Of a stretch of 45,900 bases of DNA, positions 1-45,900 are shown in pieces. The translations under genes were made by a program, and so were the position numbers. The stretch comes from a virus. The notes under the pieces were generated by a model. The model was given only the letters and a program-made list of their open reading frames with translations. It made no database searches and was not told the origin of the DNA. The stretch lies in the UHGV virus genome UHGV-1347344; one strand, given 5' to 3'. Numbering within the stretch: the stretch's first letter is position 1; each line of letters opens with the position of its first letter.

Positions 1-962
1 AGATAGAGCTCACCGCTATCGGGGGAATAGCGCATCATAAGGCCTGGGCTGCTTTTTGTTCCCGAAAATGTTATGAGCCTCACTCCGTCAGCATATAACC
101 GTCCAATCTCGACATCGCTCGTTATGATTATGTTGTGTGACGACAACGTGTACCGCGTTCCGTCTTCTTCGACATAAACGCCAAGCGAAGAAAGCAACCC
201 GCCGCTGTTTCGAGCATACATCTGAGTGGCTTTAATATTATTAACATTATGCACAAAATCATGGGCACCCATGATCGTTCCATTCTTGTCGAGCATGAAA
301 AGCCCTAACTCTTGTTTCGTAGCTGGCGCGGCATTGATGAGATCAAGCCTATTCTTGATCGAAAGATTGCCGGTCACCGTCCCGCCGGACAGGGGCAATT
401 TGGACTGTGCGGCATCGTATGCAGTCTTGACAGCAGTTGCCGATGCAGCCGTCGTCGAATCTGTCGAGCTCACGCTGTCGGTCAGCTTCGCCGCGAGAGT
501 CACGTCAGCAGAGAGCGGCCCGCCGCCAGTGAGCCCAGTTCCGGCGATGACCCGCCGCGAATCTGGAACAAAGTCGCCGGAGACAAAAGATGCAAGCGAA
601 ACCCAGTACGTGCGGTTTGCTTGCTGTGCAGGGTCTTTTGCTCCAGTTCCCAATACATCTGGCCCGGAAGGTTGCAACGCGATGTACTCGACATCATCAC
701 TTCCTTTAACATGAGAGCCTGCGATATAGTTCAGCGTAGCTTGCCACGGGTAGACGCATCCGGATTGTTGGAAAAAGGCGTGTTGACCAAGCAAGTTGAA
801 AAGCGCGTTCATCCACGCTCTTTCAACCATGACGCCGCCCGCGTCCGGGTCGACCTGCGTGATGAACGGAAAGAGATCCCGGAAAGAAGGAATACCTTGA
901 CCTGTCGGGGTCGTCTCAGGGATCTGCACGGTATCCGCTGCATATCCCAAGACGTTGGGCAT
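1..962 (-). CDS. tail fibre protein, N-terminal ~320 codons; ORF runs off the window start
   Basis: Minus-strand frame is open from ATG at 962 to position 1. Translation MPNVLGYAADTVQIPE...LTGGGPLSADVTLAAKLTDSVSSTDSTTAASATAVKTAYDAAQSKLPLSGGTVTGNL carries the typical tail-fibre stem motif. It lies directly downstream of the baseplate J and DUF2313-like genes. It is absent from the ORF track because it has no in-window stop. Confidence 0.75.
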   Translation of the reverse strand, partial: MPNVLGYAADTVQIPETTPTGQGIPSFRDLFPFITQVDPDAGGVMVERAWMNALFNLLGQHAFFQQSGCVYPWQATLNYIAGSHVKGSDDVEYIALQPSGPDVLGTGAKDPAQQANRTYWVSLASFVSGDFVPDSRRVIAGTGLTGGGPLSADVTLAAKLTDSVSSTDSTTAASATAVKTAYDAAQSKLPLSGGTVTGNLSIKNRLDLINAAPATKQELGLFMLDKNGTIMGAHDFVHNVNNIKATQMYARNSGGLLSSLGVYVEEDGTRYTLSSHNIIITSDVEIGRLYADGVRLITFSGTKSSPGLMMRYSPDSGELY

Positions 963-966
963 GATA

Positions 967-1650
967 CTAGGAGTCGAGGGAATAGGCATCTACAGGGCCT
1001 CCATACGGCTGAAAAACGCCGTTGTTGAAATTCTGACCGCCGGATCCGGCGAAACCGAAGGTATGTTTCGGGATGACTTGATAGACGTCATAGCCGACGC
1101 CCGCAGGCTTTGGGGGAACGTCATCGCGCAGGAGAAGCGCACGCTCGTATGGCTGGAGCTTGAAGCCGATAACGTAGCGTATTTTCATCGTTCCGACATG
1201 CACGACGGCAATATGACCGCGATCCGAGAAAAGCCAATGAACGATCTTGTTCAAATCTAGGAGGCTGCCGTCGGTGATGTTCGAAGCTGCTTTCATCCAG
1301 ATCAAAAGATGGTATGCGTTATCTTGAAGTATGAACGTGTTCGATTTGCTCTCATATGCAAAAGGACCGTGCCCAAAGTTGCTGAGGTTTGAACCGGAGA
1401 AACCGAACGGCTTGATGTCCGTCGCCTCTACTTCAAGCGTACGCGGAATGGCGACGATGCGTCCCCACACATCAAGCCCCCATCCGAATGCCGTTTCTGG
1501 GTCAAAGACGGACTCATAGAACGCCGCAATATCCGCCGTGGGCTCAATGACGGCATTCATCGATTCGATGAGCGCCAGCAGCCGTTCAGAGTTGTCGTAT
1601 TGCGAAAGTATCGTTTCGCGCCAGTTATCCACGGCCCGACCTCGCCTCAA
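967..1650 (-). CDS. phage tail protein (DUF2313 / Mu gp48 / P2 gpI-like)
   Basis: 227-aa ORF immediately downstream of baseplate J in a conserved Mu-like order (J, I, fibre). Product assigned by position and family resemblance. Confidence 0.6.
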   Translation of the reverse strand: MRRGRAVDNWRETILSQYDNSERLLALIESMNAVIEPTADIAAFYESVFDPETAFGWGLDVWGRIVAIPRTLEVEATDIKPFGFSGSNLSNFGHGPFAYESKSNTFILQDNAYHLLIWMKAASNITDGSLLDLNKIVHWLFSDRGHIAVVHVGTMKIRYVIGFKLQPYERALLLRDDVPPKPAGVGYDVYQVIPKHTFGFAGSGGQNFNNGVFQPYGGPVDAYSLDS

Positions 1651-2878
1651 GAATGTTCACCGTGACGTTGTCGGAGACGAGCGTGGGGGCTTCATCTATA
1701 TTAATGGTGATGTAGTCGCCCCACGTTGGCGAACCTTCACCGACGGGCGCCGCGATTTCGATACTCACCAAGTCGGTGACGCCCGTTCCGAGCACGGCGG
1801 AATAAAAGCGGCTTGCATACGCCGTATCCCCGATATGAACGCGCTGGACCGTATTTCCGCAGGCGTCAGCGGTTTCTCCGTAGAATTCGGCAACAACGGC
1901 GGTTTTGATGAGTTCTTCGACGTTGCTCGGCATTGAGGCATTTTTGCGGATAGTCACCTGAATGCCCACCAGGAGCGATTCCGGGCGCTCAAAGAGTACC
2001 GTCTCGACCGCTCCGGTTACCGGATCGGTCACAGTGACGCTGGTGTTGCCGTTGTAATCACATCCGGCTGAACAACGGGCGTAAATGGCCTCAGCAATAT
2101 CACTATCCGTCGCGCTGCCGACGACCGCCACATAGATTGAGTGCGGCTTGAGCGTAACGCCCTGCACTTCAAGCGGCGCGCTGGTTTTGTTCTCGCGCAC
2201 ACAGACATCAAGCACGCCATCCAGATCGCCGACGTTGGCATAGACGGCGGCGGCGACGCTCCGGGCGTTCTTCGCGACGCTGGCGTAGCGCCGGGACTCG
2301 AACGCGGCCCGGCTCTCGACGTTTTGTCCGGTGATCCCATCGGCGTTTGTGATCGTATCCCACCCGGGGATGGTACGTACAATCGTAGTCACGGTTCCCT
2401 GCCGGATTTCAATCGGCCCCGGAACCTGACAGGCGAACTCCAAAACGATGCTGCCGGACTGCGGGATCGTGCCTCCTGTCTGGCAGATCAAAACATTCCC
2501 GTCCGCATCTTTCGCGAGCGCCGGGGCGTCGCTGCCGATGCCGGGAATGACTGTACCGGGAAGCCCCGTACAGACACACGGAACAACTGTGGAGCGTGCA
2601 GGCTGCCTGGTCAGGAAGTAGATTTTGGCGAGCGCGTCCTGATAGACGCCCGTCGCAGTCTCGGGGTTGAACATGTTTGCGAGAAACAGGAGCTGGCTGT
2701 TCTTGTCCTGCACGATGGCCGTTTCGGATGTGATGAGCTGTCCCTGCGGCGTGGCCGGATCCGGGTTCAGCCGATTGTCGAATGCCGCCTGCCAATTCGT
2801 TTCGACAGCGTCCCGAACGGTCGCGGTATCGGGGACGACCGGGCCGTTTTCGGTAAAATCGATGCTAGACTGCGACAT
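1625..2878 (-). CDS. baseplate J-like protein (Mu gp47 / P2 gpJ family)
   Basis: 417 aa. Position between the gp25/W-like and DUF2313-like genes. Start overlaps the upstream gene, suggesting coupling. Confidence 0.75.
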   Translation of the reverse strand: MSQSSIDFTENGPVVPDTATVRDAVETNWQAAFDNRLNPDPATPQGQLITSETAIVQDKNSQLLFLANMFNPETATGVYQDALAKIYFLTRQPARSTVVPCVCTGLPGTVIPGIGSDAPALAKDADGNVLICQTGGTIPQSGSIVLEFACQVPGPIEIRQGTVTTIVRTIPGWDTITNADGITGQNVESRAAFESRRYASVAKNARSVAAAVYANVGDLDGVLDVCVRENKTSAPLEVQGVTLKPHSIYVAVVGSATDSDIAEAIYARCSAGCDYNGNTSVTVTDPVTGAVETVLFERPESLLVGIQVTIRKNASMPSNVEELIKTAVVAEFYGETADACGNTVQRVHIGDTAYASRFYSAVLGTGVTDLVSIEIAAPVGEGSPTWGDYITINIDEAPTLVSDNVTVNILEARSGRG

Positions 2879-3299
2879 CTGCGGTTTCCCCCGTTTCCGT
2901 GGTGATGCGGATCGTCCCGCTCAAGATGCGTTTTTCAAGCCGAGAAAGCTGCGTATCAGCCTGCGCTACGCCGGGGACTTCAAGCGCACGGGCATTCGAG
3001 CGCGCCCGCACGAGCTCGGCGGGAGGGAGGGAACCAAGCTCGCGCATGAAGTACGGGATTCCGTCTTGCTGCGCGTAGTACGGTTCTCCTTGGAATGTGC
3101 GTACATACGATGCGACATCCTGCACGATGCGCATAGTCCCCCCTGCCGAAGCAAGATTGCCCCCTACGGAGAGCGTCAAATCCCACTGTCTATCAAGACA
3201 TAATGATAGGAGCCCCGAATCTACCACTTCGGCAGTTGCTTGCACTTCATCACGAATATTAGACAGCGCGCGGATATTCAGAACCGCTCGGAAATTCAT
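2865..3299 (-). CDS. baseplate wedge protein (Mu gp46 / GPW / gp25-like), start refined to internal ATG
   Basis: The 230-aa track ORF has a junk-like N-terminus. The ATG at 3299 forms an ATGA overlap with the upstream stop and gives 145 aa (MNFRAVLNIRALSNIRDE...), the expected size and position for gp46/W. Confidence 0.55.
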   Translation of the reverse strand: MNFRAVLNIRALSNIRDEVQATAEVVDSGLLSLCLDRQWDLTLSVGGNLASAGGTMRIVQDVASYVRTFQGEPYYAQQDGIPYFMRELGSLPPAELVRARSNARALEVPGVAQADTQLSRLEKRILSGTIRITTETGETADVAV

Positions 3300-4075
3300 A
3301 AAGCCCCTTCTTCCGCTTTTACAGATTCGGCAAGCCGAGCCTGCGCAGCGGCGACAAGCGTCGCTATGTCCCGCCATTCTCCATCGCCACAGAGCACGTA
3401 GGTGGCTTGCCCGGCGGCTGCGGGCGGAACAAGGCCGCTTGTCCCGGCTGCCGATGCCGTCGCGCCCTCGTATTCGGGCACGGAGATGATGCCGTTGTTT
3501 ACAGTGAGACCGTCGCCGATGCGTGAAGACGACACAATTTCTGACCAAGAAGACCAATCATTACTCGCTAAGCGATACTGCCTGAGGAACATACGTTCTC
3601 TTGCTGATGAATAGGCATATGCTATCTGATACAAATTCTTTGTGAATGCGTCTTTTTTACTGTAAAAAACTTGCAGGAAGGCGGCGCTTCCATCGATTGG
3701 GCCATTCACGCCACCTGTTGCGTTTATTAAGTAAAATCCTGCTTCGGTAACTGTATTGTAGTCTACATTACTCCCAAGTTCTCGTGCTGCCCCGATCTGC
3801 CCCCGCGCACTCGCCAGATCCCCGAGATCCCCACCAATCGCCACGTCCTTCGCGGTGATCACGCCGCCCGCGTCGGCCTGCGTGGTCTTTCCGTCGACAA
3901 GGTTTGAGGCTTGAGCTCGCTCGATCGCCTCGTTTGCAGTGATCTGTGCAGCTATTGCGGTAGACTGTGCTGCGTCTGCGGCTCCCTGCACTTGCTGAAA
4001 GAACCGTGTGGTTTGTCGCTCGAATTCGCTGCCGGACAGCGGTCCTGTAGGCGGCTGGTACTGAAAATCAGGCAT
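3296..4075 (-). CDS. tail-fibre-like / receptor-binding accessory protein inserted between baseplate V and W
   Basis: 259 aa with Gly/Ala-rich repeats and a C-terminal segment GFYLINATGGVNGPIDGSAAFLQVFYSKKDAF...WSSWSEI reminiscent of fibre knob domains. No counterpart at this position in Mu/P2. Confidence 0.5.
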   Translation of the reverse strand: MPDFQYQPPTGPLSGSEFERQTTRFFQQVQGAADAAQSTAIAAQITANEAIERAQASNLVDGKTTQADAGGVITAKDVAIGGDLGDLASARGQIGAARELGSNVDYNTVTEAGFYLINATGGVNGPIDGSAAFLQVFYSKKDAFTKNLYQIAYAYSSARERMFLRQYRLASNDWSSWSEIVSSSRIGDGLTVNNGIISVPEYEGATASAAGTSGLVPPAAAGQATYVLCGDGEWRDIATLVAAAQARLAESVKAEEGAL

Positions 4076-4086
4076 AACACCCCCCG

Positions 4087-4809
4087 TTACTGTGGTTGTC
4101 CGGATATGCCGGAACCGGGCTCGACCCCGGTATGAACATGGGTTTCCAAGACCTTACCGTTGCTCTCAACCGTCCCTCCCGCGTTCGTGAGGCCGCCGGA
4201 GAACCGGGCCGGACCGCCGTCGCCCTGCGCCGTGCCCGTCCATGTTAGAGAGCCGTTGATGCGCACGTCGGCGTTGATGGTGAGTCCATTTTCCGCCGTC
4301 AGGACGGAAGTTTCCCCGTGCATCGTCAGTTTGGCCACTCCTTCGATGGTGACGCCCTCGTCGTCGACCAGCACATAGCGTTCAGGCGCGGCGTTCAAGA
4401 AACCTCCGAGATAGAAGCCGTCGCCTTTGCTCATGGCACGGGCTGACCCAGGATTGACGGTCCCGTCCGCTCCCCGGCTCTCTTTGAGTGATTCCGTGTC
4501 GCGCATGGCGTAGACGGCGAGGCCGATGTCGCCCGGCTGTGGGTCGATGACGAGGGCGTTTTTCCCGCCTTGGACGCGCAGGTACGGGAGCTTGAAGAGC
4601 ACGCTCTGCTCCTGCGCCTTCTGGTCGCCCGTCACGAGGTTGACGAGAGGCTGCACGTCGACGAAGCCCACCGGGGAGACGCCCGAGCCGGAGACGGCGA
4701 CCACACGCACGGGTTCAGCCGTGGCGATGCGCCCGAGCATCTGGCTGATCATGAAGTCCTGCGCGTTGTACTCGCTGGAATTTGTCGAGAGGCCGCGTTG
4801 TCCCTGCAT
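4087..4809 (-). CDS. baseplate spike protein (gpV / Mu gp45-like)
   Basis: ATG at 4809 overlaps the upstream stop (TAATG). Product MQGQRGL...VRVVAVSGSGVSPVGFVDVQPLVN... has OB-fold spike-like features; Mu-like position. Confidence 0.6.
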   Translation of the reverse strand: MQGQRGLSTNSSEYNAQDFMISQMLGRIATAEPVRVVAVSGSGVSPVGFVDVQPLVNLVTGDQKAQEQSVLFKLPYLRVQGGKNALVIDPQPGDIGLAVYAMRDTESLKESRGADGTVNPGSARAMSKGDGFYLGGFLNAAPERYVLVDDEGVTIEGVAKLTMHGETSVLTAENGLTINADVRINGSLTWTGTAQGDGGPARFSGGLTNAGGTVESNGKVLETHVHTGVEPGSGISGQPQ

Positions 4810-5711
4810 TATTTCTTGTCCTTCTTCGGCTTCGCGCCGGGATAGCTTGCCTTGATCTGGCTTACCCACTGCGTTGCTCCGGGATAGCCTGCCTGCAATT
4901 TGTGGCTCAGGCTTACGATCTGCCAGAGGCCGGATGCGCGGGGGACGATGCTCTCAATACGCACCGGGCCGCCGATCTGGAGCTTCGGCTCGTAGATGCC
5001 TTTCACCGTCACGCCTTCGTTGTCGAAGCTCGGATAGCCAATCATGCCGCTTTTCGCGGACCAGACGGGCGTCGAGCCGCCGTCATCGCTGCGAAGCGTC
5101 GCAAGCGGGGAGATGACCATCTCGCCATCGTCCACGATGAGGTCAATACGGGCATCGTGGGCAAGCTGCTGCGCCTGTTCCATCGGGCCCCCGACGATGG
5201 CGACATTGCGAATGGAAACGGACACGCCCCTGTTGACGAAAGCGAGTCCCATTTGCTTCGCGAGCCCCTGCATGAGCGTGGCAACGTCCTGCGCACCCTG
5301 CGCCGTCAACGGCGGCACGGGCGTGATGCTGGCGACGTATCCCGTGATGCACTCAATATCGAAAGAGGGATCAGGGGCGGAATTGAAGTTCGGAACGGCG
5401 CTCACGATATCGCCGGAGAACGCAAGAGACATCCCGTGCTCTTCATCGCCCGCGTACACGGCAATGCGGTTTTTCGACGCCTGCAACGGCTTGAACGCCA
5501 GCGTCGTCAGAGTCTCCATGTCCGCCAATGGCATGTTGAAAATCTTGACCTTGGCCTTGTTCTTCTCTTTGCCGCCGGGCTTCTGGATGTCCACATCCAT
5601 GCCGAGCCGGATGATCTTGGTGTTCGCACCTTGCCCGGTAACCGTGTTGAAGCCGCCCTCGGCGAGCGTGATATGCGCTTCAAGCAGCTTTTGGGTGAAG
5701 CTCGTGTTCAC
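4809..5711 (-). CDS. baseplate hub protein (P2 gpD / Mu gp44-like)
   Basis: 300 aa, located between the tape-measure-proximal small genes and the spike gene. Confidence 0.5.
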   Translation of the reverse strand: MNTSFTQKLLEAHITLAEGGFNTVTGQGANTKIIRLGMDVDIQKPGGKEKNKAKVKIFNMPLADMETLTTLAFKPLQASKNRIAVYAGDEEHGMSLAFSGDIVSAVPNFNSAPDPSFDIECITGYVASITPVPPLTAQGAQDVATLMQGLAKQMGLAFVNRGVSVSIRNVAIVGGPMEQAQQLAHDARIDLIVDDGEMVISPLATLRSDDGGSTPVWSAKSGMIGYPSFDNEGVTVKGIYEPKLQIGGPVRIESIVPRASGLWQIVSLSHKLQAGYPGATQWVSQIKASYPGAKPKKDKK

Positions 5712-6010
5712 AGCGTTTCCCCTTCTTCAACATAAACGAGCTGGAATCGGTCGCCGAGGCCCGCCCAGTACGGATCTTCTTCGCCCTGCATATCGACAAA
5801 GTAGAGCTGCCCCCGGAAGGCGAGATAGTCGTACAGCTTCAAGCCGACGAGGTTACGGCAGATGAACCCAGACCAGATGACCGTCTGGTCAATGGCAAGG
5901 TCGCAGTACAGGTTCACGCCTCGGGAGATAAACCGGAGGGTGCAGTTCTGTTCCCCAAGCACAATCTGGAGGCTCTGGTTCGGCTCCTGTCGGAGCGGTA
6001 CGGTCATCAT
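5708..6010 (-). CDS. small tail/baseplate assembly protein
   Basis: 100-aa ORF translationally coupled (4-bp overlaps) on both sides within the tail operon. Confidence 0.5.
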   Translation of the reverse strand: MMTVPLRQEPNQSLQIVLGEQNCTLRFISRGVNLYCDLAIDQTVIWSGFICRNLVGLKLYDYLAFRGQLYFVDMQGEEDPYWAGLGDRFQLVYVEEGETL

Positions 6011-6564
6011 CCGAAAATCCCCTCGCCCATCTTTTTCAGTGTGCTTTTTTGCGTCGTCTGCCCCTGTTGTTTCCCGGCATCCGTGGTGCTTGCGTCGGTC
6101 GGATTCTTTGCCTGCGCCTTATTGATTGGCTTTATCGTTTCGTTGCTGTACTGCGGCTCGACCTGCCGGATCTCTTGCAGCATGAGCCCTACAAGCAGCC
6201 TGTCCACACCCTTTTCGGCCTTGCGGTCGTAGTCGTAGGAGACAAGGTTGTAGTCGAGAAATGTCTTCTCAGGGGTGACGATGCTCACGAGATCGGTACT
6301 TTCCGCCAGTTTGTCCAGCGCCTCCAGAAAAGCCGCAAGCTCGTCGCTCTTCCCAGTGCGGCCCATCACGACCGACACCGCCGTGGGAGAAGCGACCTTG
6401 TTGTAATCCGCGAAACTCCCTTTCTCGACGGGGTTGGAGCTGATTTTGTTCTCGGACTTGATCGAGCAGGAAAAGAACGTGTCGAAGTCGAGGGCCTTGG
6501 CGCCGTCTTTATCGAAAATCGACCAGTTTCCGGGCTGTCCCGGAGGAAGCGCGCCGAATGCCAT
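6007..6564 (-). CDS. tail protein downstream of tape measure (Mu gp43 DNA-circulation-N-like, by position)
   Basis: 185 aa; the stop of the tape measure gene (6566) abuts its start. Confidence 0.45.
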   Translation of the reverse strand: MAFGALPPGQPGNWSIFDKDGAKALDFDTFFSCSIKSENKISSNPVEKGSFADYNKVASPTAVSVVMGRTGKSDELAAFLEALDKLAESTDLVSIVTPEKTFLDYNLVSYDYDRKAEKGVDRLLVGLMLQEIRQVEPQYSNETIKPINKAQAKNPTDASTTDAGKQQGQTTQKSTLKKMGEGIFG

Positions 6565-6565
6565 G

Positions 6566-9454: not shown

Positions 9455-9468
9455 GTTTTACCTCATCA

Positions 9469-12893: not shown

Positions 12894-12896
12894 GGG

Positions 12897-36613: not shown

Positions 36614-36640
36614 AAGCCCGGAACTACGCCGGGCTTTTTC
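36614..36640 (+). terminator. rho-independent terminator/attenuator 48 nt upstream of the first rightward early gene
   Basis: 8-bp stem aagcccgg/ccgggctt with a 7-nt loop, then TTTTT. Confidence 0.55.
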
Positions 36641-36687
36641 ATTGGTTCTGGGACCCCGGAACGAACTTTAACCAAGAGGATACAGCC

Positions 36688-37157: not shown

Positions 37158-37312
37158 TTTCCAACGTCTACATGAAGCACGCCAAGGTATCTTTGGAACG
37201 GCCTAAAAAGGTTGACCGGGCTAGAGTTGCTGCGGTCATCATCTTTATGGCTGTCATGCTCGGTATCTGCATTCTTCCACAGATCTTGTACGGGATGGAG
37301 GCCATGCGATGA
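37154..37312 (+). CDS. small membrane protein (52 aa)
   Basis: ATGA overlaps on both sides; TM segment AAVIIFMAVMLGICILPQIL. Below the track cutoff. Confidence 0.35.
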   Translation: MISNVYMKHAKVSLERPKKVDRARVAAVIIFMAVMLGICILPQILYGMEAMR

Positions 37313-38139: not shown

Positions 38140-39041
38140 GTCAACTTGTACAGCAGAACAATATCACAGACCTTATCAAATCGCAGATGCCCGCCATTGC
38201 TTTGGTGATGAATGGCACATCGGAAAGGGAGCGGAAAATCAAGGCAGAACGTTTTGCACGTATCTGTCTGACCGCTGTCCGTAAAAATCCAAAACTCATG
38301 AAGTGCTCGCAAGAAAGCTTTGCAGCGGCTCTTATGAACTGTGCACAGCTCAACCTTGAGCCCAATACGCCGCAGGAATTGGCATATCTTATTCCCTATA
38401 AGGATGAATGCCAATTTCAAATTGGATACAAAGGGTTTCTACAGCTCGTATATCGTTCTGGCATTGTCTCATCATTCAATGCCGATGTTGTATACAGGGC
38501 TGAGGTTGAAAACGGTATGTTCGAATACCGTAAAGGGATCACACCAACCATTACCCACAAAGTCGATCTACTGCATCCAGAAGCCCGCGAGGGAGAACTT
38601 ATTGCGGCCTATGCAGCATGTACGCTCAAGGGCGGCGGTGAGGGGATGCTTCGACTTGTTGATAAAAAGGACATCGAGCGCGCACAAAAGACTAGCGCCA
38701 GTCTCGCCGCGAACAAAAAGTATGGAAAGGACAGCCCGTGGATTTCTTCTCCAGAAGCCATGTGGATGAAGACAGCCATCAAACGTCTTGCCGCTTGGCT
38801 TCCTCAGACGGAAATGCTGGCAATGGCCGTTGACCTCGACGACAAGTCAGAACGCGGGGAATCCCAACTTGTTCTTCCTGAATTGACGCCGACAGATGGC
38901 CTAAACGCGGCACTCACGGGAAGCACGCCGGAAGCGCAACCCGTCAATATGATCACCTGTCCGAAAACTGAAAAGCAGGTGAACGACTTGAAGTGTTCCG
39001 AATGTGACCAGCACGCCCAATGCCCGGCGTGGGCAGAATAA
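38136..39041 (+). CDS. recT: RecT-family single-strand annealing recombinase
   Basis: 301 aa with RecT family-wide similarity (…CAQLNLEPNTPQELAYLIPYKDECQFQIGYKGFLQLVYRSG…). Confidence 0.8.
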   Translation: MSQLVQQNNITDLIKSQMPAIALVMNGTSERERKIKAERFARICLTAVRKNPKLMKCSQESFAAALMNCAQLNLEPNTPQELAYLIPYKDECQFQIGYKGFLQLVYRSGIVSSFNADVVYRAEVENGMFEYRKGITPTITHKVDLLHPEAREGELIAAYAACTLKGGGEGMLRLVDKKDIERAQKTSASLAANKKYGKDSPWISSPEAMWMKTAIKRLAAWLPQTEMLAMAVDLDDKSERGESQLVLPELTPTDGLNAALTGSTPEAQPVNMITCPKTEKQVNDLKCSECDQHAQCPAWAE

Positions 39042-39096
39042 CCACCCCGGCCCGGCTCACCACCGGGCCTTTCTTTTACCATAAGGAGAAAGAGCC

Positions 39097-39501
39097 ATGA
39101 GCAGTCCTCTCGACATGCGAACCATGAACAACGGCGGCGTGGTCGAAGCCGTCAACATCGCGCTTGCCAAGGTCGCGGACAACATCGCGGACGTGAACAC
39201 GCCGCCGGACAAGCCCCGTACCGTCACCCTCAAAATCACATTCAAGCCCGACGAGAGCCGGACGCTGATCGCATCCAAGGCCGTTGTGACGACCAACCTC
39301 CAGCCGCAGGAACCGCAGACCATCCCGGTCGTGCTCGACAAGCTCGACGGCGCGCCCATGCTGTTCGAGTCATTCACCGACAACCGCCCCGACCAGTACC
39401 GCTTTGACGGCACCATGCCCTCTGAACTCAGGGGGAACGGCAGCGTGACCGTGAACGTAACCCCGTTCAAGAAGGCTGAGGAACACCCCATCAACCAGTA
39501 A
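39097..39501 (+). CDS. hypothetical protein
   Basis: 134 aa with RBS AAGGAGAAAG. Confidence 0.45.
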   Translation: MSSPLDMRTMNNGGVVEAVNIALAKVADNIADVNTPPDKPRTVTLKITFKPDESRTLIASKAVVTTNLQPQEPQTIPVVLDKLDGAPMLFESFTDNRPDQYRFDGTMPSELRGNGSVTVNVTPFKKAEEHPINQ

Positions 39502-39518
39502 CAAAAGGAAAAAATCAC

Positions 39519-39791
39519 ATGGAAATCAACCGTATTGAAGCTGACAGGCACCTCATCGGCGTAGGCCGGGAACTCGAATCCCTTGACGGCAAGGCCAAGG
39601 CCACACTTCCCATTCATGCCACGGAAGACGGGATGCGGTTCTACAAGCCTATGCTTGAAGGAGAATGGATTCCTCTCCTTGACGCCGCTCAGGGCACGCT
39701 CAACGTGGGCACCTTGCAGGCCGTGGTGGACTACATCAACCAGAACCCCGACGGGGATGGACCTCAGCAAGATCCTTGTCCACGTTTGTGA
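39519..39791 (+). CDS. hypothetical protein, possibly the N-terminal part of a frameshifted gene
   Basis: 90-aa ORF overlapping the next ORF in another frame across a GGGG run near 39757. Confidence 0.35.
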   Translation: MEINRIEADRHLIGVGRELESLDGKAKATLPIHATEDGMRFYKPMLEGEWIPLLDAAQGTLNVGTLQAVVDYINQNPDGDGPQQDPCPRL

Positions 39792-40284
39792 TGTGACTAC
39801 CGTGAAAGTCATGTCCATCCCCTTTGGGGGCTGGAAGCAGCGCACCACGTACATGCGGGCCGACGCCGTCGTCCCTGCCCACCGTTTCGGAAGCTGGACC
39901 TCGCCCGACGAGTTTGTCCCCTATCTCCAGTCCTGCTTTGTCCCCTCGGACGATCTCGACGCGCTCATCAAGATCAGCGGCAATCTCGTGGACACCTCGG
40001 AAGTCCGCGTACAGGACGACGGCGTGTCGCAGGAGGTTTCCATCCGCCAAGGCGCGGCACGCAAGGCCGAAGTGCCCGTACCGTCCCCTGCGGTTATCTT
40101 CCCGTTCAGCACCTTTGCGGAAGTCGCGCAGCCCGCGCACAAGGTCGTGTTCCGGCTCCAGTCCAGCCCGCTGGCCTGCAAACTCATCGAATGCGACGGC
40201 GGCGCGTGGAAGCTGGAAGCCATCGCCAATATCCGCACATGGCTGATTGAAAACCTGCCCGAAGGCGTGAAGGTCATCGCGTAG
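39757..40284 (+). CDS. hypothetical protein, possibly the C-terminal part of a frameshifted gene
   Basis: 175 aa from ATG at 39757; the upstream part of the 233-aa track ORF looks non-coding. Confidence 0.4.
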   Translation: MDLSKILVHVCDVTTVKVMSIPFGGWKQRTTYMRADAVVPAHRFGSWTSPDEFVPYLQSCFVPSDDLDALIKISGNLVDTSEVRVQDDGVSQEVSIRQGAARKAEVPVPSPAVIFPFSTFAEVAQPAHKVVFRLQSSPLACKLIECDGGAWKLEAIANIRTWLIENLPEGVKVIA

Positions 40285-40332
40285 CACCCCACGCCCCGCC
40301 CTCCCCCGGCGGGGCTTTTCATACCCCAAACC

Positions 40333-40599
40333 GTGGGCCGCGCATACGAAGCACGCGGAGATGATATGCAACAAGTCACAAAAGAAAGCGTAAACTGGCA
40401 TGAGTACGCACCAGCAAGAAATTGTGAGAATTGCCAGTATGGTAGACGTATTGATGTATATCAGTGCGTCTACCGCTGTGAGCTTAACGATTGGAATACC
40501 GGAACACTGTCAATCTGCGATAAATGGACGAAAAAGGCGGAATGGCGAAATGGGAAAGGCGGCTCACGTGGGTGTGGGTCGCCTTCTTTCTTTGGATAG
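40333..40599 (+). CDS. hypothetical Cys-rich protein
   Basis: 88 aa. Confidence 0.35.
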   Translation: MGRAYEARGDDMQQVTKESVNWHEYAPARNCENCQYGRRIDVYQCVYRCELNDWNTGTLSICDKWTKKAEWRNGKGGSRGCGSPSFFG

Positions 40600-40650
40600 T
40601 ATGGATGGTGTGCAGGGGCGCGGCTGCATGAACAACGCGCGGAGTGAAAT

Positions 40651-40986
40651 ATGCTGACGGAAAAGGAGCGTGAGTGGCTCACGGTTCGGAAAAAGGCTTG
40701 CGCCCGGTGCGGCAAAGTCCCGTCCCGGTGCAGCCAAGACCAGCGGAACGTCTGCTATAGGGCGGGCTTCCCGCTGTGGGACAAAACGACAGTTACGTTT
40801 GAATCGTACCGCGACGCCGCCGAGTTCGAGGCGAGGGTATCACGGTGTATTGCTGAGAATGTATCAGAACTAGATATGATATCTAACAACTTGCAGTTCC
40901 TTGATGGTTTCAAAGCCAAAAGCCTAGCGTGGTACATCCTGCGGGAAGCGCGTATCGCCGTTGAGGAGAAGATGGACAATGAGTGA
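40651..40986 (+). CDS. hypothetical protein
   Basis: 111 aa containing CARCGK…C. Confidence 0.4.
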   Translation: MLTEKEREWLTVRKKACARCGKVPSRCSQDQRNVCYRAGFPLWDKTTVTFESYRDAAEFEARVSRCIAENVSELDMISNNLQFLDGFKAKSLAWYILREARIAVEEKMDNE

Positions 40987-41182
40987 AACCTCCCTTGAAT
41001 CCATCATGAAGTGCTCGAAAGAGGCGATTGCGCGGGCGTATATGTGCCGGGACTATTATGAAAACATGAAAGAATGCCCTGAGGTTACGCCGATAAGGTG
41101 TTATCTCGGTCACTTCTGCGGAGACATAACCCCGCAGGAGTGGGAAGAAGTGCTGAACAGCGCGCAGGAGCCGAAAGAATGA
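40979..41182 (+). CDS. hypothetical protein
   Basis: 67 aa from ATG at 40979 overlapping the upstream stop. Confidence 0.35.
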   Translation: MSETSLESIMKCSKEAIARAYMCRDYYENMKECPEVTPIRCYLGHFCGDITPQEWEEVLNSAQEPKE

Positions 41183-41670
41183 CCATCACCACCGCAGAAC
41201 TCGCCCGCATCCGTTCCGCCGCCATTGGCGACATGCTCGGAGATCCCGGGGCGCTCGACAAACTTAGTCCGGCGGCTACCATTTTCAGGCTGTGCCGGGA
41301 ACTGGAACTATCGCGGAAACACGCCGTCACCATGTCAGAAGTAGCAGCCGCAGCGTGGGGCGGGGAAATCCCGTCACCGTTGCCCGGTCATACTCACATG
41401 ACCGAAGAAGAATTTACCGAAAGATATAACTGCCCTTGGTGTGGCGGTTCTGGTCACATCGACGATTGCGATGAAGCAGACAAACAGGTCAAGGCTCAAC
41501 TGGAACGGCTGGATCGGGAAGCGGATGTCCTCAGTATCTGGCTTGCAAACGCATATATCGACATTGATTTACTGCCCGAGATCGATTCCGGTGCTATGAA
41601 TCCGCCGTTGCCTGAAGATGTACGGGAAGCCGCACGCGAGGCTGCTAGAAAAGATGAACTCCAAACATGA
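41179..41670 (+). CDS. hypothetical protein
   Basis: ATGA coupling at 41179. Contains CPWCGGSGHIDDCDE. Confidence 0.4.
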   Translation: MTITTAELARIRSAAIGDMLGDPGALDKLSPAATIFRLCRELELSRKHAVTMSEVAAAAWGGEIPSPLPGHTHMTEEEFTERYNCPWCGGSGHIDDCDEADKQVKAQLERLDREADVLSIWLANAYIDIDLLPEIDSGAMNPPLPEDVREAAREAARKDELQT

Positions 41671-41816
41671 AAGAAATGCCGCAAGAGTATGGGCATTGGC
41701 AGAATTGCTTGCAATCTCTGGCGGATGTGAAGGATGTAATCTCAGGGGACTGCACAGTTGTCAGGATATCGTATCCAGAAAACTGTGCTGGATCAAAAAG
41801 GCCGATGAGATGATTA
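41667..41816 (+). CDS. small hypothetical protein (49 aa)
   Basis: ATGA coupling with the upstream gene. Alternative to the 41618..41869 track ORF in another frame. Confidence 0.25.
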
Positions 41817-41843
41817 AAAGGCGCAAGGCCGTGGGGAGGCTAA

Positions 41844-42368
41844 ATGAACTCAACGCCACAAATTCTTGATCCCTGTTGCGGTGGAAAAATGCTTTGGTTC
41901 AATAAAAATGATCATCGTGCTGCATTTTGTGACAGCAGACGAGAAAAGCATATACTTTGTGACGGAAGAGTTTTTGAAGTGAATCCAGATACGGTATGCG
42001 ATTTTCGCAAGTTACCCTTTCCTGACGAATCCTTTTTTCTTATTTGCTTCGATCCTCCACACCTCTTGCAAGCGGGAGAAACGTCTTGGATAAAGAAAAA
42101 ATATGGAAGCCTTAATAGGCTAACGTGGAGCGAAGACTTGTCGAAAGGGTTCGACGAATGCTGGCGCGTCCTCAAGCCCGGAGGGACGCTGATTTTCAAG
42201 TGGAACGAGACTCAGATCAGCTTGCGCGATGTGCTTTCCTGCTTTTCAAGACGCCCAGTTTTTGGACATACGACAACGAAACGCCGAGACACGCACTGGA
42301 TGACTTTTTACAAGGAAGCCGCTCGCGAGGCCGTGGAGGAAGGAGAAGAATCATGCCCGAAGAACTGA
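41844..42368 (+). CDS. small SAM-dependent methyltransferase (DPPH motif; putative DNA N6-adenine/N4-cytosine MTase class)
   Basis: 174 aa with ILDPCCGGK (motif I-like) and FLICFDPPHL (motif IV-like DPP[YFH]). RBS GGAGG. Confidence 0.45.
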   Translation: MNSTPQILDPCCGGKMLWFNKNDHRAAFCDSRREKHILCDGRVFEVNPDTVCDFRKLPFPDESFFLICFDPPHLLQAGETSWIKKKYGSLNRLTWSEDLSKGFDECWRVLKPGGTLIFKWNETQISLRDVLSCFSRRPVFGHTTTKRRDTHWMTFYKEAAREAVEEGEESCPKN

Positions 42369-42700
42369 CGTTGCTACCGTGCCCACTGTGTCAAGCAAGA
42401 GCACACGTTGAATGCCACAATGGAAAGTTCCGTGTGATATGTAAAGGCGAATCAGGATGTCCATTCAGAATGGGCGGAAAGTGGTTTGTTTTTCCCGATG
42501 AGTGCTATGACTGGTGGAACGCCTTCCCCCGAACACTGGAGTGGACGGACGAGCCGCCGAAGGTGCCGGGGTGGTACTGGTATCGCCACAAGCCTAGCCG
42601 TACAATCGCCATGATCAATGTAGACGTCGAGCCAATAGAATATGAATCCCTTCCCGGACAATGGGCAGGCCCCATCCCCGAACCCCGCGAACCGAAGTAG
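42353..42700 (+). CDS. lar: Lar-family restriction alleviation protein
   Basis: ATG at 42353 preceded by GGAGGAAGGAGAAGAA. Product MPEELTLLPCPLCQARAHVECHNGKFRVICKGESGCPFRMGGKWF…ECYDWWNAFPRT matches the Lar pattern (PCPFCGG…AIEAWNRR). Confidence 0.6.
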   Translation: MPEELTLLPCPLCQARAHVECHNGKFRVICKGESGCPFRMGGKWFVFPDECYDWWNAFPRTLEWTDEPPKVPGWYWYRHKPSRTIAMINVDVEPIEYESLPGQWAGPIPEPREPK

Positions 42701-42736
42701 CCCCGAAAGGGGCTTTCCTTTTTTCAGGAGAACCTC

Positions 42737-42916
42737 ATGCCCGAGAAGATTTCCCGTTTCGCTATCCTCGTCCGCGACATGCGGGCGGCCCAGAAACGCT
42801 ACTTCGAAACGCGGGACAAGGCCGACCTGTCCCGTGCCAAGGAACTCGAAAAGAAGGTGGACGACGAAATCACCGTCATCTTTGGCGGTGTTCGGACGCA
42901 AGGAACCTTGTTGTAG
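42737..42916 (+). CDS. small hypothetical protein (59 aa)
   Basis: RBS AGGAGAAC. Product MPEKISRFAILVRDMRAAQKRYFETRDKADLSRAKELEKKVDDEITVIFGG…. Below the track cutoff. Confidence 0.35.
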   Translation: MPEKISRFAILVRDMRAAQKRYFETRDKADLSRAKELEKKVDDEITVIFGGVRTQGTLL

Positions 42917-42927
42917 GAGAACCAATC

Positions 42928-43422
42928 ATGCGAAGACCCATCAACCCCGTAATCCCCTACCCGCACGAGGCCATCCAGCACACTCGCTGTGTTCTGGCCT
43001 TGTCCATGATCACCGTGGCGATTTCTTTCCTCAAGCCGGAAATGCTGGCGCAGCTTGGCGACCTCGGAAAGCAGGTCGAGAAGGTCAACCGCTGGATCGA
43101 CCGATGCGCGGACGACACGCAGAAGCGCAGACTCTCCGCAGGCGCGAAACGGGATCTGGATGCCCGGTTCCATATCCTTGCCGGGCACGTCGGGGATATT
43201 CAGGCGTCTGCCGCCGATGCTTCCCGCTGGACGCAATGGGCCGCCGGGATGTGGGCCGGACTGACCTTCCTTGAGGACTGCCGGAACACCTGCCCTGTCT
43301 ACTTCCGAGGCCTTCACTGGCACAACCTGCTCAAGACGCTGACCACGCTGTGTAATGCGCTCGAAAAGGTCGACCCGCAGATCGCTGAGATTGGGACGCG
43401 GGTGTACGAGCGGGCCGCGTAG
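42928..43422 (+). CDS. hypothetical protein
   Basis: ATG at 42928 preceded by TAGGAGAA; 164 aa. Confidence 0.45.
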   Translation: MRRPINPVIPYPHEAIQHTRCVLALSMITVAISFLKPEMLAQLGDLGKQVEKVNRWIDRCADDTQKRRLSAGAKRDLDARFHILAGHVGDIQASAADASRWTQWAAGMWAGLTFLEDCRNTCPVYFRGLHWHNLLKTLTTLCNALEKVDPQIAEIGTRVYERAA

Positions 43423-43436
43423 GGAGGATAAGAAAT

Positions 43437-43649
43437 ATGGAAACGACAATCTCGGAAATCCGCTCAATCGTACAGCGGCGTCGGGAGTTGGAGATTGAAG
43501 ACCAACGTCTCTACCAACGGTTTCTCGAACTGCTCGAACTCAACCAAGGGACTAGAAAATCTTCCCGCGATAGGCTATCCCCAGAATCAGGGAAGGCGCT
43601 TTTTGCTGGCTTGAAGAGAGGTTCTCATGAGCGTAGCAAAGCGCGGTGA
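43437..43649 (+). CDS. hypothetical protein (possibly excisionase-position gene)
   Basis: 70 aa directly upstream of int, overlapping it. RBS GGGAGGATAAG. Confidence 0.4.
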   Translation: METTISEIRSIVQRRRELEIEDQRLYQRFLELLELNQGTRKSSRDRLSPESGKALFAGLKRGSHERSKAR

Positions 43650-44691
43650 CGGCAGATTTGTCGTCAAGTTCAAAGATGAAGAAGGGCGCTGGAAACAGCG
43701 CTCTTTCCGTACTGATGAAGAGGCCCGGCAGTTCGATGCGGATTGCCAATATGATAAGGTGGAAAACACGCGCCTGACGCTGTTGGAGGCGGTGCTGGTG
43801 TACTTAAAGAACACTGAGTACGCCGAAAAAACCATAGCAACGTACGAGTTTTTGGTCTGTGGCCATGACAGGCAAAACGGCTATCACCGGGAAGGTCCAG
43901 CGGAGTTTATTGCCGACCGTTTTGTTGACACATTGACACGTCGTGACCTCGAAAATGTGCGCGAGAGGTGCAGGAATGATGGCCTGACTATGACAAGCAT
44001 CAACTCCTACGTTTCAAAACTCAAGGCCGCAATCAATTGGTGCGTCGAACAGGATTTGCTCCACGAGAATCCTTGGGGGAAATATCGGCAACTCCCAGGC
44101 GCAAAAAACAAGCCACGGACGGGAACGCTGGAAGACTTCCACAAACTCTTTCCTGTGCTCCCGCCGTGGCTTCAATGGGCAGCCCAAACCGCCATTGCCC
44201 TATGTCTGCGTCCCGGCATATCCGAACTTTTCCGTCTCGAATGGTCGGCATTCGACTGGAAGGCTAGAACTGTGTGCGTTTACATGCCGAAAGTTTGTAC
44301 TACAAAACTTGTATTCCCGCCAGAGGCATATCTTGCCGAAGCGTGGCTACGGTTCAAGTCAGACATGGCAGCTGGAAAAACCCTCGTTTGCCGTGGGAGA
44401 AAAGGCACGGCAGTGACCTCCTCCATGTACCACAAGTCATGGGATAGGGCATGTAAAAAAATCGGCGTACTTATGCCTATGTACGCGTTACGGCATATTG
44501 CTGCTTCCGAAATGCTGGCAAATGGGGTGGACATCGCAGCAGTGGCCGCGCAACTTGGGCACAAGAACATCACCACAACAGGGGCATTCTACACTCATGC
44601 GCTGGCATCATCCCAACGGCGTGCAGCTACATGCCTCCCTGATTGCACCAACTTGGTGCGGAATGGTGCAGAAAAACAATTACATAATTAA
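43627..44691 (+). CDS. int: tyrosine integrase/recombinase
   Basis: 354 aa with a C-terminal catalytic region (…ALRHIAASEMLANGVDIAAVAAQLGHKNITTTGAFYTHAL, R…H-x-x-R…Y). Last gene of the rightward early operon. Confidence 0.85.
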   Translation: MSVAKRGDGRFVVKFKDEEGRWKQRSFRTDEEARQFDADCQYDKVENTRLTLLEAVLVYLKNTEYAEKTIATYEFLVCGHDRQNGYHREGPAEFIADRFVDTLTRRDLENVRERCRNDGLTMTSINSYVSKLKAAINWCVEQDLLHENPWGKYRQLPGAKNKPRTGTLEDFHKLFPVLPPWLQWAAQTAIALCLRPGISELFRLEWSAFDWKARTVCVYMPKVCTTKLVFPPEAYLAEAWLRFKSDMAAGKTLVCRGRKGTAVTSSMYHKSWDRACKKIGVLMPMYALRHIAASEMLANGVDIAAVAAQLGHKNITTTGAFYTHALASSQRRAATCLPDCTNLVRNGAEKQLHN

Positions 44692-44860
44692 TAAAAACAA
44701 TGTATTGAGCATAAAAGCTATCTTCCGTTACGGAAGCGATACTATCTAATCATTTTAATATGTAACGAACATCCTGCACCAAACAGCTTGGTGCAGACGG
44801 CAAAAAGCGTCTTCCCAACGCCTCAAAAAAGTGAGCATCGGTATGCTGTGTGAATGCGAA

Positions 44861-44900
44861 AAACCCCCTCTCGATTCGCGCCGGGAGGGGGATTTTTTTG
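44861..44900 (+). terminator. rho-independent terminator downstream of int
   Basis: ccccctc…gaggggg stem followed by TTTTTTT. Confidence 0.55.
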
Positions 44901-44905
44901 TGTCT

Positions 44906-45136
44906 TCAATCCGACTTTTTCGCCACGAATCGGATCTCATCTCGGTGCTCAGGCAGCCACCTGCATTTGTTCAGGCACCACCACGGAGTGATGATGAACC
45001 GACCATCAGCTTTCGCTTTCCTGTCGGGATGAGCACCCGACACGGCACAGTCCAGAGAACACAGCATCAGGGCTTGAACGCGCTCACCGTGTGGGCAACG
45101 CAAGTTTTCCTCTTCTTCGGGCATGGGTAGTGGCAT
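44906..45136 (-). CDS. hypothetical protein downstream of tfa
   Basis: 76-aa ORF; weak. Confidence 0.3.
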   Translation of the reverse strand: MPLPMPEEEENLRCPHGERVQALMLCSLDCAVSGAHPDRKAKADGRFIITPWWCLNKCRWLPEHRDEIRFVAKKSD

Positions 45137-45188
45137 GACCTTCCTCCTTGTTTCTAAAGAGTCTAGCCATGCCTACGATTTTTGCAAA

Positions 45189-45590
45189 TCACGGCTCTAC
45201 AGGCCACGGACACGCCGGATCATCCGGCCCATTCCACGGAAATCCCGGCTGTTGCGGCAAATCGCGGAGCGCTTGCCGATAGACCTTGATCTCTTCAAGC
45301 TTGTCTTGTGAAATCGGATAGTCCGGTATGACGAGGTAATCAGTCTCAGCAATACGTCTATCACGCTCAGCGCGTACGTGAGCTGCGAGATCTTCGGTTG
45401 TCGGTACGGGAGGGACATAGGGCTGTTCTTCAGTCACGCATTCAGGGTGCGCCTCGGCATAGGCAAATGCCTCGTCCCATTCTTCCGCGAATTCGGCAGA
45501 GTAGGGATAGACATGGTAGGGCATACCATTTTTCGTGATGACGTATGAGTCGTCAAAAGTGCGGTGGATGATTTGCGAAAAATCAATCAT
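45189..45590 (-). CDS. tfa: tail fibre assembly protein (Tfa, Caudovirales tail assembly chaperone family)
   Basis: C-terminal …RRIAETDYLVIPDYPISQDKLEEIKVYRQALRDLP is the Tfa signature. Directly downstream of a tail-fibre C-terminus. Confidence 0.7.
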   Translation of the reverse strand: MIDFSQIIHRTFDDSYVITKNGMPYHVYPYSAEFAEEWDEAFAYAEAHPECVTEEQPYVPPVPTTEDLAAHVRAERDRRIAETDYLVIPDYPISQDKLEEIKVYRQALRDLPQQPGFPWNGPDDPACPWPVEP

Positions 45591-45602
45591 TTTAACCTCT
45601 TT

Positions 45603-45900
45603 TTATGCAACACGAGCACAAAGCCCGGCGACCATGTAGTCTGTGGGTGCGTTCGGGATTACTGTGCCCCCTGCTACATTCGGATAGTATTTCGCAGCGC
45701 CTTTGCCGCCACTGGAGTTGAAGCAGATACACACGACATTATATGTACCACCGGACGGCACGGTGATTTGCGGACCCGAGAGATTGACGACCCATTGCAC
45801 GGCTGGAGCGGCTATCAGAGCTGACCCTGCGCTGTTTGCATAGTTTGCAGTATCAGCGTTCCCAGCAGTATCTGCTTTTCCGTGAACGGCCCTACCGTCG
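45603..45900 (-). CDS. tail fibre protein C-terminal part (ORF open to the window end; in frame with the fibre ORF at 1..962 if the sequence is circular)
   Basis: Minus-strand frame is open from 45900 to the stop at 45603 (DGRAVHGKADTAGNADTANYANSAGSALIAAPAVQWVVNLSGPQITVP…). Followed by tfa. Confidence 0.65.
   Translation of the reverse strand, partial: DGRAVHGKADTAGNADTANYANSAGSALIAAPAVQWVVNLSGPQITVPSGGTYNVVCICFNSSGGKGAAKYYPNVAGGTVIPNAPTDYMVAGLCARVA

Follow-up and report, generated by a model that had tools for sequence, protein, structure and literature searches.

The 45,900-bp stretch of viral DNA analysed here (in full, the window) very probably (roughly 95%) represents, in its entirety, the closed-circle genome of a temperate myophage, as yet uncultivated, whose host is Bilophila wadsworthia. 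The position at which the assembled circle was opened is arbitrary and lies within the tail-fibre gene. Bilophila wadsworthia is a sulphide-producing gut pathobiont, and a literature search for papers on its phages found none. That a circular contig is opened inside a gene is a routine assembly outcome with little at stake, its practical consequence being that rotating the record keeps the fibre gene unsplit. The gain lies elsewhere: in a reference genome, closed and complete, for one of the temperate phages of this species; in base-exact attP, attB, attL and attR sites, which make prophage calling and induction assays possible; and in the recognition of the ‘Csy2’ of Bilophila genomes as a prophage gene outside CRISPR-Cas.

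One tail-fibre gene across the two ends

On the minus strand, the reading frame that starts at ATG 962 has run through 320 codons plus two bases when it reaches position 1, while at the other end, between 45899 and 45603, 98 codons are open before TAA (45603-45605) is reached. Joining 45900 to 1 yields the junction codon CTC (Leu) and a single uninterrupted ORF of 419 aa that reads ...RYSPDSGELY-L-DGRAVHGKADTAGNADTANYANSAG..., with ...SGELY-L-DGRAVHGK... as the junction peptide region. The first-pass annotation had claimed that the window ends are in-frame halves of one fibre of ~420 aa with CTC at the junction. End-to-start concatenation and renewed ORF calling bore this out, returning one unbroken fibre ORF (419 aa, or 428 aa from ATG 989) and then the chaperone gene. 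The likelier start is the in-frame ATG further upstream, at 989: GGAGG precedes it by 8 nt, and in six other contigs gene callers likewise assign this gene a product of 428 aa. Read from there, the 5′ part of the gene occupies 1-989 (minus strand; codons 1-329, then the first two bases of the junction codon) and the 3′ part 45603-45900 (minus strand; the third junction-codon base, 98 codons and the TAA). The fibre repeat domain belongs to PF03406 Phage_fiber_2 (29.2 bits; cut-off 22).

Directly downstream of the fibre gene lies that of a 133-aa, tfa-like tail-fibre assembly chaperone (45189-45590, minus strand; PF16778, 80.7 bits, 7e-23; phrog_4912). Next comes a conserved 76-aa ORF (44906-45136, minus strand) with which the late operon closes; gene callers place it behind tfa in each of ten related contigs, and profile searches gave it no family match. 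The end of the late operon is marked by a terminator-like, G+C-rich hairpin with T-runs on both sides (44864-44891, plus strand).

The junction is also found in relatives. A protein-guided search of IMG/VR for related fibres returned 36 loci; the exact 33-mer spanning the junction is absent from this database, its relatives there differing at a few bases. The junction aligns gap-free in six other fibres (L002, L003, L004, L008, L012 and L021). Apart from L002, five metagenome contigs and B. wadsworthia ATCC 49260 (NZ_JNJP01000012.1) retain ...RYSPD(S/T)GELYLDGRAVHGKAD..., again gap-free, and the ATCC 49260 fibre shares 90% amino acid identity over residues 1-419.

Closure of the genome

By its coordinates, the window coincides with bases 1-45900 of ENA contig ERZ807456 NODE_2_length_45955, and it is identical to that contig over 35189-45900, the part of the contig (L006) with which it was compared. 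The final 55 bases of the ENA contig, directly after base 45900, are those of window 1-55, and 45955 - 55 = 45900. We infer that this terminal overlap is the SPAdes k-mer overlap on a circular path at k=55, a value taken from the overlap size and absent from the contig name. With the 55 removed bases read as such an overlap, base 45900 runs straight into base 1 and the fibre gene is intact. The evidence for circularity thus consists of the contig overlap and of other assemblies: contig L002, which comes from another sample and has 99.4% identity, is gap-free from window position 9690 down to 1 and then from 45900 down to 44719.

Could the circle be an assembly artefact, produced by a repeated 55-mer in or between fibre genes or by a tandem prophage, so that junction sequence is missing? 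Such an origin gains some credit from the mosaic nature of the fibre genes: the fibre centre (residues ~214-300 of 428) differs even from that of the 99.4%-identical L002, the fibres of L001 and L005 have an in-frame 135-aa deletion and B. wadsworthia ATCC 49260 holds four fibre paralogues. Yet contigs from other samples cross the junction base for base and without insertion, the junction peptide is conserved gap-free, the remainder of the circle is the contiguous window and the attP form described below occurs independently in contig L012, making an artefact highly improbable. The other possibility, that the window was cut out of some larger genome or an integrated prophage and that its ends join in frame by coincidence, is refuted. 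As a round number, 45,900 might point to an arbitrary cut, but it is explained as 45955 less the 55-nt overlap; furthermore, the window holds no host gene and its attP is intact, whereas integrated copies have host genes directly past the 76-aa ORF or directly past int.

All expected phage modules are present in the window, and host genes are absent from it. The gene content comprises terS, terL, portal, Mu-F, protease-scaffold, capsid, connectors, sheath, tube, tape measure and baseplate as well as fibre, chaperone, endolysin, late activator, RusA, a DnaD-like loader, RecT/exonuclease and integrase. The closed, complete genome therefore agrees with the earlier proposal of a complete circular or circularly permuted genome, as judged from the 55-nt overlap, independent collinear contigs, att sites and full modules. 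What follows base 45900 is the window's own start instead of host DNA, and neither a stop codon nor a frameshift is present at the join. The complete gene set claimed at the same time was likewise recovered (packaging, capsid, tail, endolysin, replication, recombination and int), the repressor being without a clear candidate: no clear CI-type protein was identified in the window, only a weak 77-aa HTH (35812-36045). Megablast of both window halves against 50,697 GenBank phage records gave no match, nor did an Rfam search of the window, be it to a CRISPR repeat family or to another known RNA.

Integration at an 18-bp core

The phage encodes a 354-aa tyrosine integrase (43627-44691, plus strand; PF00589) that is transcribed towards attP, and an identical integrase protein is found at prophage-host junctions in many contigs. 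The attP common core, TATCTTCC(G)TTACGGAAG, measures 18 bp (44719-44736) and begins 27 nt past the int stop codon. It is surrounded by TGGTGCRGA repeats on both attP arms (44654, 44664 and 44789, with an inverted copy at 44774-44782).

Comparison of sites places attL in L017 and L020, attR in L002 and attP in the window, and the core TATCTTCCTTTACGGAAG is common to attP, attB, attL and attR. The reconstructed empty attB was matched exactly in 21 contigs from other gut metagenomes; L082, L085, L087 and L098 show it between the two host flanks, with 99-100% identity. A second contig in attP form, L012, is 96.8% identical over window 42927-45465. The window's own attP core has a G at 44727, as opposed to the T of attB, attL, attR and this second attP contig. 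Judging from these site sequences, the phage integrates via its tyrosine integrase at the 18-bp core. As tRNA genes were found neither at the junctions nor in the window, the phage does not use one as its att site. Because the window has the excised attP form, the sequenced DNA is free phage DNA and not a prophage. For this exact variant, B. wadsworthia is the inferred host species, the host flanks of the att contigs themselves carrying no species assignment. A plasmid-prophage, suggested by a ParB_N protein (30633-31154, minus strand), was rejected given the integrase and the documentation of all four att forms.

Head genes and packaging mode

The head and packaging module is encoded on the minus strand and consists of TerS (28194-28598), TerL (26744-28213; Terminase_6N/6C), portal (24300-25847), a Mu-F-like (Mu-F/SPP1-gp7-like) head protein (23522-24307), protease-scaffold (21586-23292), cement/minor capsid (20937-21575) and major capsid (19913-20926). 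An Endonuclease_I gene lies inside the module on the plus strand (25983-26729). The presence of terS and terL, claimed at the outset, holds for this minus-strand pair. It does not hold for a plus-strand pair of 166 and 463 aa (17751-19626), which has the right sizes for terS/terL and instead encodes an AcrIF11-like protein and a Cas8f-Cas5f fusion.

As to the virion DNA, we lean towards headful packaging with circularly permuted, terminally redundant ends, because TerL is of the Terminase_6 type and has relatives in the phiPLPE group, and because a Mu-F/SPP1-gp7-like protein is present. Among characterised phages, TerL has its best matches at only 39-50% identity, too distant to settle how the DNA is packaged. 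Aaphi23 and S1249 (46.5-46.7%), two members of the phiPLPE group of small myoviruses, are among the nearest phage relatives of TerL, which has no sequence match in PDB. Five genomes of the phiPLPE group were assembled as circles and read as circularly permuted (PMC3391216), and the packaging mode of Aaphi23 is taken indirectly from the same source.

With somewhat less than an even chance, the sequenced DNA could instead come from an excised phage replicating after induction, as a covalently closed circle or a replicative concatemer, or represent joined cos-ended DNA, the virion DNA then not being circularly permuted. Temperate phages with such a lambda-like module order frequently use cos sites, and the sequence holds no direct sign of permutation. 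An intact attP whose coverage is high (179x according to the contig name) would suit any excised form. What speaks against this alternative is, again, the Terminase_6-type TerL, whose closest relatives are in the Aaphi23/phiPLPE group reported as permuted, and the start of terS, which is overlapped by an epimerase gene at 28595-28598 and so leaves no upstream intergenic gap for cos. A cos site was not identified in the window. Sequence alone cannot separate a true circle or concatemer from permuted linear virion DNA; headful packaging is the mode that we slightly favour.

Tail, late and early genes

The tail is contractile and of the E217/Pam3 type, with sheath, tube and baseplate wedge genes present. 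All tail genes are on the minus strand. The baseplate and tape-measure block (967-8374; also matching phrog_6 and phrog_587) was annotated from Pfam calls on collinear contigs that are 94-99% identical. It includes a 259-aa protein (3296-4075) and the tape measure (6566-8374), along with Phage_Wedge1 (967-1632), baseplate wedge (1625-2878), a sheath-initiator-like protein (2865-3299), Apex (4087-4809), E217_GP41 (4809-5711), Pam3_gp18 (5708-6010) and Dit_like (6007-6564). A 227-aa reading of the Phage_Wedge1 gene (967-1650) had no exact match on record, because gene callers use the 221-aa start. The adjoining block from tube to connectors (9005-13343; PF22764, PF11863, PF23961, PF22755 and PF13262) encodes tail tube (9005-9454), tail sheath (9469-10974; PF11863; phrog_205 tail sheath, 2e-82), tail terminator (10993-11478) and head-tail connector proteins (up to 13343).

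Beyond terS, late and early-right genes fill 28595-35002 on the minus strand: besides ParB_N, these are a sugar epimerase/dehydratase (28595-29596), a TAGT glycosyltransferase (29539-30408), endolysin (32056-32463), late activator (32506-32898), RusA (33299-33865) and a DnaD-like loader (34031-35002). The early-left block (37309-42368, plus strand; Pfam on L006, with a further match to phrog_954) contains an exonuclease (DUF3799; 37309-38139), RecT (38136-39041) and a DNA methyltransferase (41844-42368).

An accessory island with a candidate anti-CRISPR cassette

Between the tail and head modules, a 5.5-kb accessory island of low GC3 (14348-19840) runs on the opposite (plus) strand. Along with genes for BRO/anti-repressor, endonuclease and GNAT proteins, it includes, at 17751-19840, a candidate anti-CRISPR cassette of three plus-strand genes that was found in two unrelated prophage backbones. 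The first encodes a 166-aa AcrIF11-like protein (17751-18251; PF26151 AcrIF11_ADP_ribosyl; PDB AcrF11 7.6e-4). The second encodes the 463-aa fusion (18235-19626), assigned by PADLOC (Cas5f 1.8e-21; Cas8f 1.3e-20) and by BLASTP against a canonical I-F locus; it joins the N-terminal part of Cas8f to the whole of Cas5f and is without the C-terminal ~40% of Cas8f. The third gene (19619-19840; 73 aa, CopG match) encodes an RHH/CopG-like protein and overlaps the end of the fusion gene.

NCBI names the 463-aa protein ‘type I-F Csy2’ in Bilophila genomes. This annotation refers to a prophage gene and not to part of a CRISPR-Cas locus: cas7f, cas6f, cas2/3, cas1 and a repeat array were all absent from the window and from the 14 related contexts examined, in contrast to L036, which carries a canonical type I-F locus. 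The best 120 Csy3 homologues include none named Bilophila. The fusion gave no tblastn match in GenBank phages, the canonical Cas8f of L036 no sequence match in PDB, and AlphaFold, given an alignment of 18 sequences, modelled the fusion with a mean pLDDT no higher than 46.

We tentatively suggest that the fusion might be a phage-borne, Cas-derived anti-CRISPR. As a faulty subunit, it would be taken up into the type I-F surveillance complex or titrate it, and it would act alongside the AcrIF11-like ADP-ribosyltransferase, under the control of the RHH protein. The locus combines homology to a known Acr, a neighbouring small DNA-binding gene and a position in a phage accessory region; inhibition itself is predicted. 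There is precedent in AcrIB3, a Cas5 homologue, and AcrIB4, a homologue of the Cas8b C-terminus (Katz et al., bioRxiv 10.1101/2023.06.24.545427). As with AcrIB3, AcrIB4 and AcrIF11, an accessory phage gene homologous to Cascade subunits lies outside CRISPR-Cas, next to AcrIF11-like and small DNA-binding genes. Unlike AcrIB3 and AcrIB4, the fusion belongs to subtype I-F and joins part of Cas8f to Cas5f, its role being predicted from sequence.

Comparison with known phages

The closest relatives of the window are the ATCC 49260 prophage (NZ_JNJP01000012.1; IMG/VR UViG_2561511128_000006) and UViG_3300008599_000014, which share 90-96% DNA identity with it across most of the tail module, apart from short stretches that do not align. 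In both, the fibre is contiguous and 90-92% identical over residues 1-419, with the same chaperone gene and 76-aa ORF behind it; UViG_3300008599_000014 was compared through the fibre only. Similarity to the ATCC 49260 prophage ends at window 44883, so that its integrase/att module differs. The window is the excised attP form of a mosaic variant different from this prophage.

The phiPLPE/Aaphi23 small temperate myoviruses (43-50 kb) resemble the window in genome size, contractile tail, lambda-like lysogeny genes and circular assembly. The comparison with this group was made on the terminase. DNA similarity is absent, and the tail proteins of the window differ in matching Pfam families named for Pseudomonas phage E217 and cyanophage Pam3.

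Finally, the first-pass annotation had the gene order matching lambda exactly. This was right for fibre, tfa, attP and int with the early region beyond, and the window does follow a lambda-like order of packaging, head, tail, side fibre, fibre chaperone, attP, int, recombination, immunity, replication, late regulator and lysis. As in lambda, int is transcribed towards attP, and a RecT/exonuclease pair replaces bet/exo. The match is not exact, however: the 76-aa ORF intervenes between tfa and attP, and the accessory island splits head from tail. Of the features of a lambdoid siphovirus, the module order is shared, whereas the non-contractile tail and the Nu1/A terminase with cos are not; in their place, the window has a contractile tail with sheath and baseplate wedge and a Terminase_6 enzyme. 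It further differs from lambda in its Mu-F-like head protein, in having no b region and in carrying an accessory island between head and tail.

A tail-fibre gene divided by the window ends

On the minus strand, the fibre frame opened by the ATG at 962 runs for 320 codons plus two bases before it meets the window edge at position 1, and the other half of the gene is a minus-strand frame from 45899 to 45603, in which 98 open codons are followed by TAA. Joining base 45900 to base 1 creates the codon CTC and a single ORF of 419 aa (...RYSPDSGELY-L-DGRAVHGKADTAGNADTANYANSAG...). When the window sequence is doubled, this ORF reaches further upstream to an ATG at 989 (428 aa), which we take as the start because a GGAGG motif sits 8 nt upstream of it and gene callers assign 428 aa to the fibre gene in six other contigs. 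The first-pass annotation, which had described the window ends as in-frame halves of one fibre gene, was hence right about ends, phase, join and CTC codon, its start codon moving from ATG 962 to ATG 989.

The chaperone protein (45189-45590) has an exact match in the ENA contig ERZ807456 NODE_2_length_45955_cov_179.42, whose NODE_2 rank in its assembly may point to a virus-enriched sample. Over the stretch compared (35189-45955), this contig is identical to the window from 35189 to 45900 in the same coordinates, and its final 55 bases equal window positions 1-55. In SPAdes, a k=55 path that closes on itself leaves a 55-base overlap of both ends, and 45,955 minus 55 gives 45,900, the round length of the window. 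A contig from a different sample (L002, 99.4% identical) continues gap-free from window position 9690 to 1 and then from 45900 to 44719, and the junction is also crossed by L003, L004, L008, L009 and L010 at 94-97% identity. At the protein level, alignment shows the junction peptide conserved without a gap in L002, L003, L004, L008, L012 and L021, the last being the genome of Bilophila wadsworthia ATCC 49260, with a fibre 90% identical over residues 1-419. Given the 55-base overlap and independent assemblies collinear over the junction, neither of the two findings named beforehand as speaking against a join, host DNA at the edges or a stop codon or frameshift at the joined position, is seen, and both checks thus speak for it. 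The split gene is confirmed, and the reading of the window as a circular or permuted phage genome is supported once the fibre start, the tail type and the wording of the likeness to lambda are corrected.

The fibre itself has a modular build. Residues 1 to about 200 hardly vary among relatives, while differences cluster at residues of about 214-300 even against L002, which is 99.4% identical in the rest of its DNA. An in-frame deletion of 135 aa is found in L001 and L005, and L012 combines another C-terminal tip with a chaperone of 138 aa.

Attachment sites and relatives

The integrase gene (43627-44691, plus strand) ends 26 nt before CTATCTTCCGTTACGGAAG (44718-44736). In the gut metagenome contigs L017 and L020, an identical integrase is followed by CTATCTTCCGTTACGGAAG and directly by host genes on the LysE side (attL); in L002, the phage end with fibre, chaperone and a 76-aa ORF is followed by other host genes on the RtcR side (attR). 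The empty site rebuilt from both host flanks, GGAAGGGG-TATCTTCCTTTACGGAAG-GCCGTC, has exact matches in 21 contigs, four of which join both flanks at 99-100% identity. The attachment site is thereby documented in all four forms with a common core of 18 bp (window 44719-44736), and as the window holds attP, the assembled DNA was excised phage DNA rather than a prophage. The attP core has G at 44727 versus T in every other form, and TGGTGCRGA repeats on both attP arms look like arm-type binding sites. The very same 354-aa integrase is used with a second, similar site, CTATCTTCCTTCGGTGAA (L011, L013 and L015 on one side, L007 on the other). The host site of core TATCTTCCTTTACGGAAG has RtcR and LysE genes on its two sides, and that of CTATCTTCCTTCGGTGAA lies between ferritin and 2-thiouridine-desulfurase-like genes; a tRNA search found no tRNA gene involved.

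GenBank phage records gave no match at the DNA level. Close relatives occur in IMG/VR, among them one whose fibre is 92% identical, and B. wadsworthia ATCC 49260 carries a related prophage, which together argue that the phage is a mosaic variant of a Bilophila prophage family. Judged by these matches, the family is already in public data, unnamed.

Cargo genes and a candidate anti-CRISPR cassette

That a circular contig should be cut open within a gene is routine; the item of this window that merits a separate look is a candidate anti-CRISPR cassette (17751-19840, plus strand). Its three genes close a plus-strand island of 5.5 kb and low GC3 (14348-19840) that separates the head from the tail modules. 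The first gene (17751-18251) encodes a 166-aa AcrIF11-like, ADP-ribosyltransferase-like protein (precomputed PF26151; PDB AcrF11 at 7.6e-4), the second (18235-19626) a 463-aa Cas8f-Cas5f fusion, and the third (19619-19840), overlapping the end of the fusion gene, a 73-aa RHH/CopG-like protein. Compared with Cas8f and Cas5f from the standard type I-F locus of contig L036, the fusion aligns through its residues 9-191 with canonical Cas8f residues 41-275 (30% identity, E = 1e-26) and through residues 206-462 with the whole of Cas5f (41% identity, E = 4e-58). It lacks the C-terminal ~40% of Cas8f. Neither cas7f, cas6f, cas2/3 or cas1 nor a repeat array lies near the cassette, and the best 120 Csy3 matches include no Bilophila-named homologue that would indicate a type I-F system in this genus. 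NCBI names the 463-aa protein 'type I-F Csy2 [Bilophila wadsworthia]'; its predicted structure was of too poor quality for use. The cassette is 99% conserved over >450 blocks of the collection and present in two unrelated Bilophila prophage backbones, and a 60%-identical version has another gene order. For type I-B, anti-CRISPRs derived from Cas proteins have been described, the main text of the preprint on them giving no Cas-derived example for type I-F (Katz et al., bioRxiv 10.1101/2023.06.24.545427).

At the start of the island, two BRO-N/anti-repressor genes on either side of it are opposed (13385-14173, minus; 15715-16386, plus), and 14983-15363 encodes a 126-aa endonuclease-like remnant where most relatives have a 356-aa HSDR_N-type (restriction-enzyme N-terminal) gene. 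Between portal and terL, an Endonuclease_I gene (PF04231; 25983-26729) forms a moron-like insert on the opposite, plus strand; among relatives, this slot is empty in L026 and holds ORF6N and SocA_Panacea genes in L027 and a YoeB/Phd toxin-antitoxin pair in L031. Just upstream of terS, three minus-strand genes of low GC3 may constitute a DNA-modification or sugar-modification module: that of a TET-associated glycosyltransferase (PF20691; 29539-30408) lies between those of an NAD-dependent sugar epimerase/dehydratase (28595-29596) and of a ParB_N-domain protein (30633-31154). The ORFs scanned include no TET/JBP oxygenase. In the relative L034, glycosyltransferase and epimerase/dehydratase are fused as one 599-aa protein.

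Packaging and comparison with lambda

The nearest phage TerL relatives are those of Proteus phage RS51pmB (50%) and Aaphi23/S1249 (46.5-46.7%). Aaphi23 has been assigned to the phiPLPE group, which consists of small myoviruses; five members of the group yielded circular assemblies, which were interpreted as circular permutation (PMC3391216). Together with an encoded Mu-F/SPP1-gp7-like head protein and a gene map in which no intergenic gap before terS could house a cos site, these relatives favour headful packaging, to which we give a probability of about 55%, all of these indications being weak at such identities. A truly circular molecule, a concatemer or cos ends that were joined, the last at odds with the lack of cos room, would be a somewhat less probable source of the closed sequence.

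In order, the minus strand encodes terS, terL (Terminase_6N/6C), portal, Mu-F-like protein, protease-scaffold, cement and major capsid, then connector proteins, tail terminator, sheath, tube, tape measure, Dit-like protein, baseplate proteins, fibre and chaperone; a DnaD-like loader, RusA, late activator and endolysin come earlier in transcription order, and exonuclease, RecT, methyltransferase and integrase are on the plus strand. The gene set had been called complete, and all modules are indeed present, but no clear repressor was found among the window genes, which offer a weak 77-aa HTH protein only. The claim that gene order matches lambda exactly is borne out for the order of modules, including an int transcribed towards attP, yet overstated for the virion, which is unlike that of lambda in having a contractile tail as in Pseudomonas phage E217 and cyanophage Pam3.
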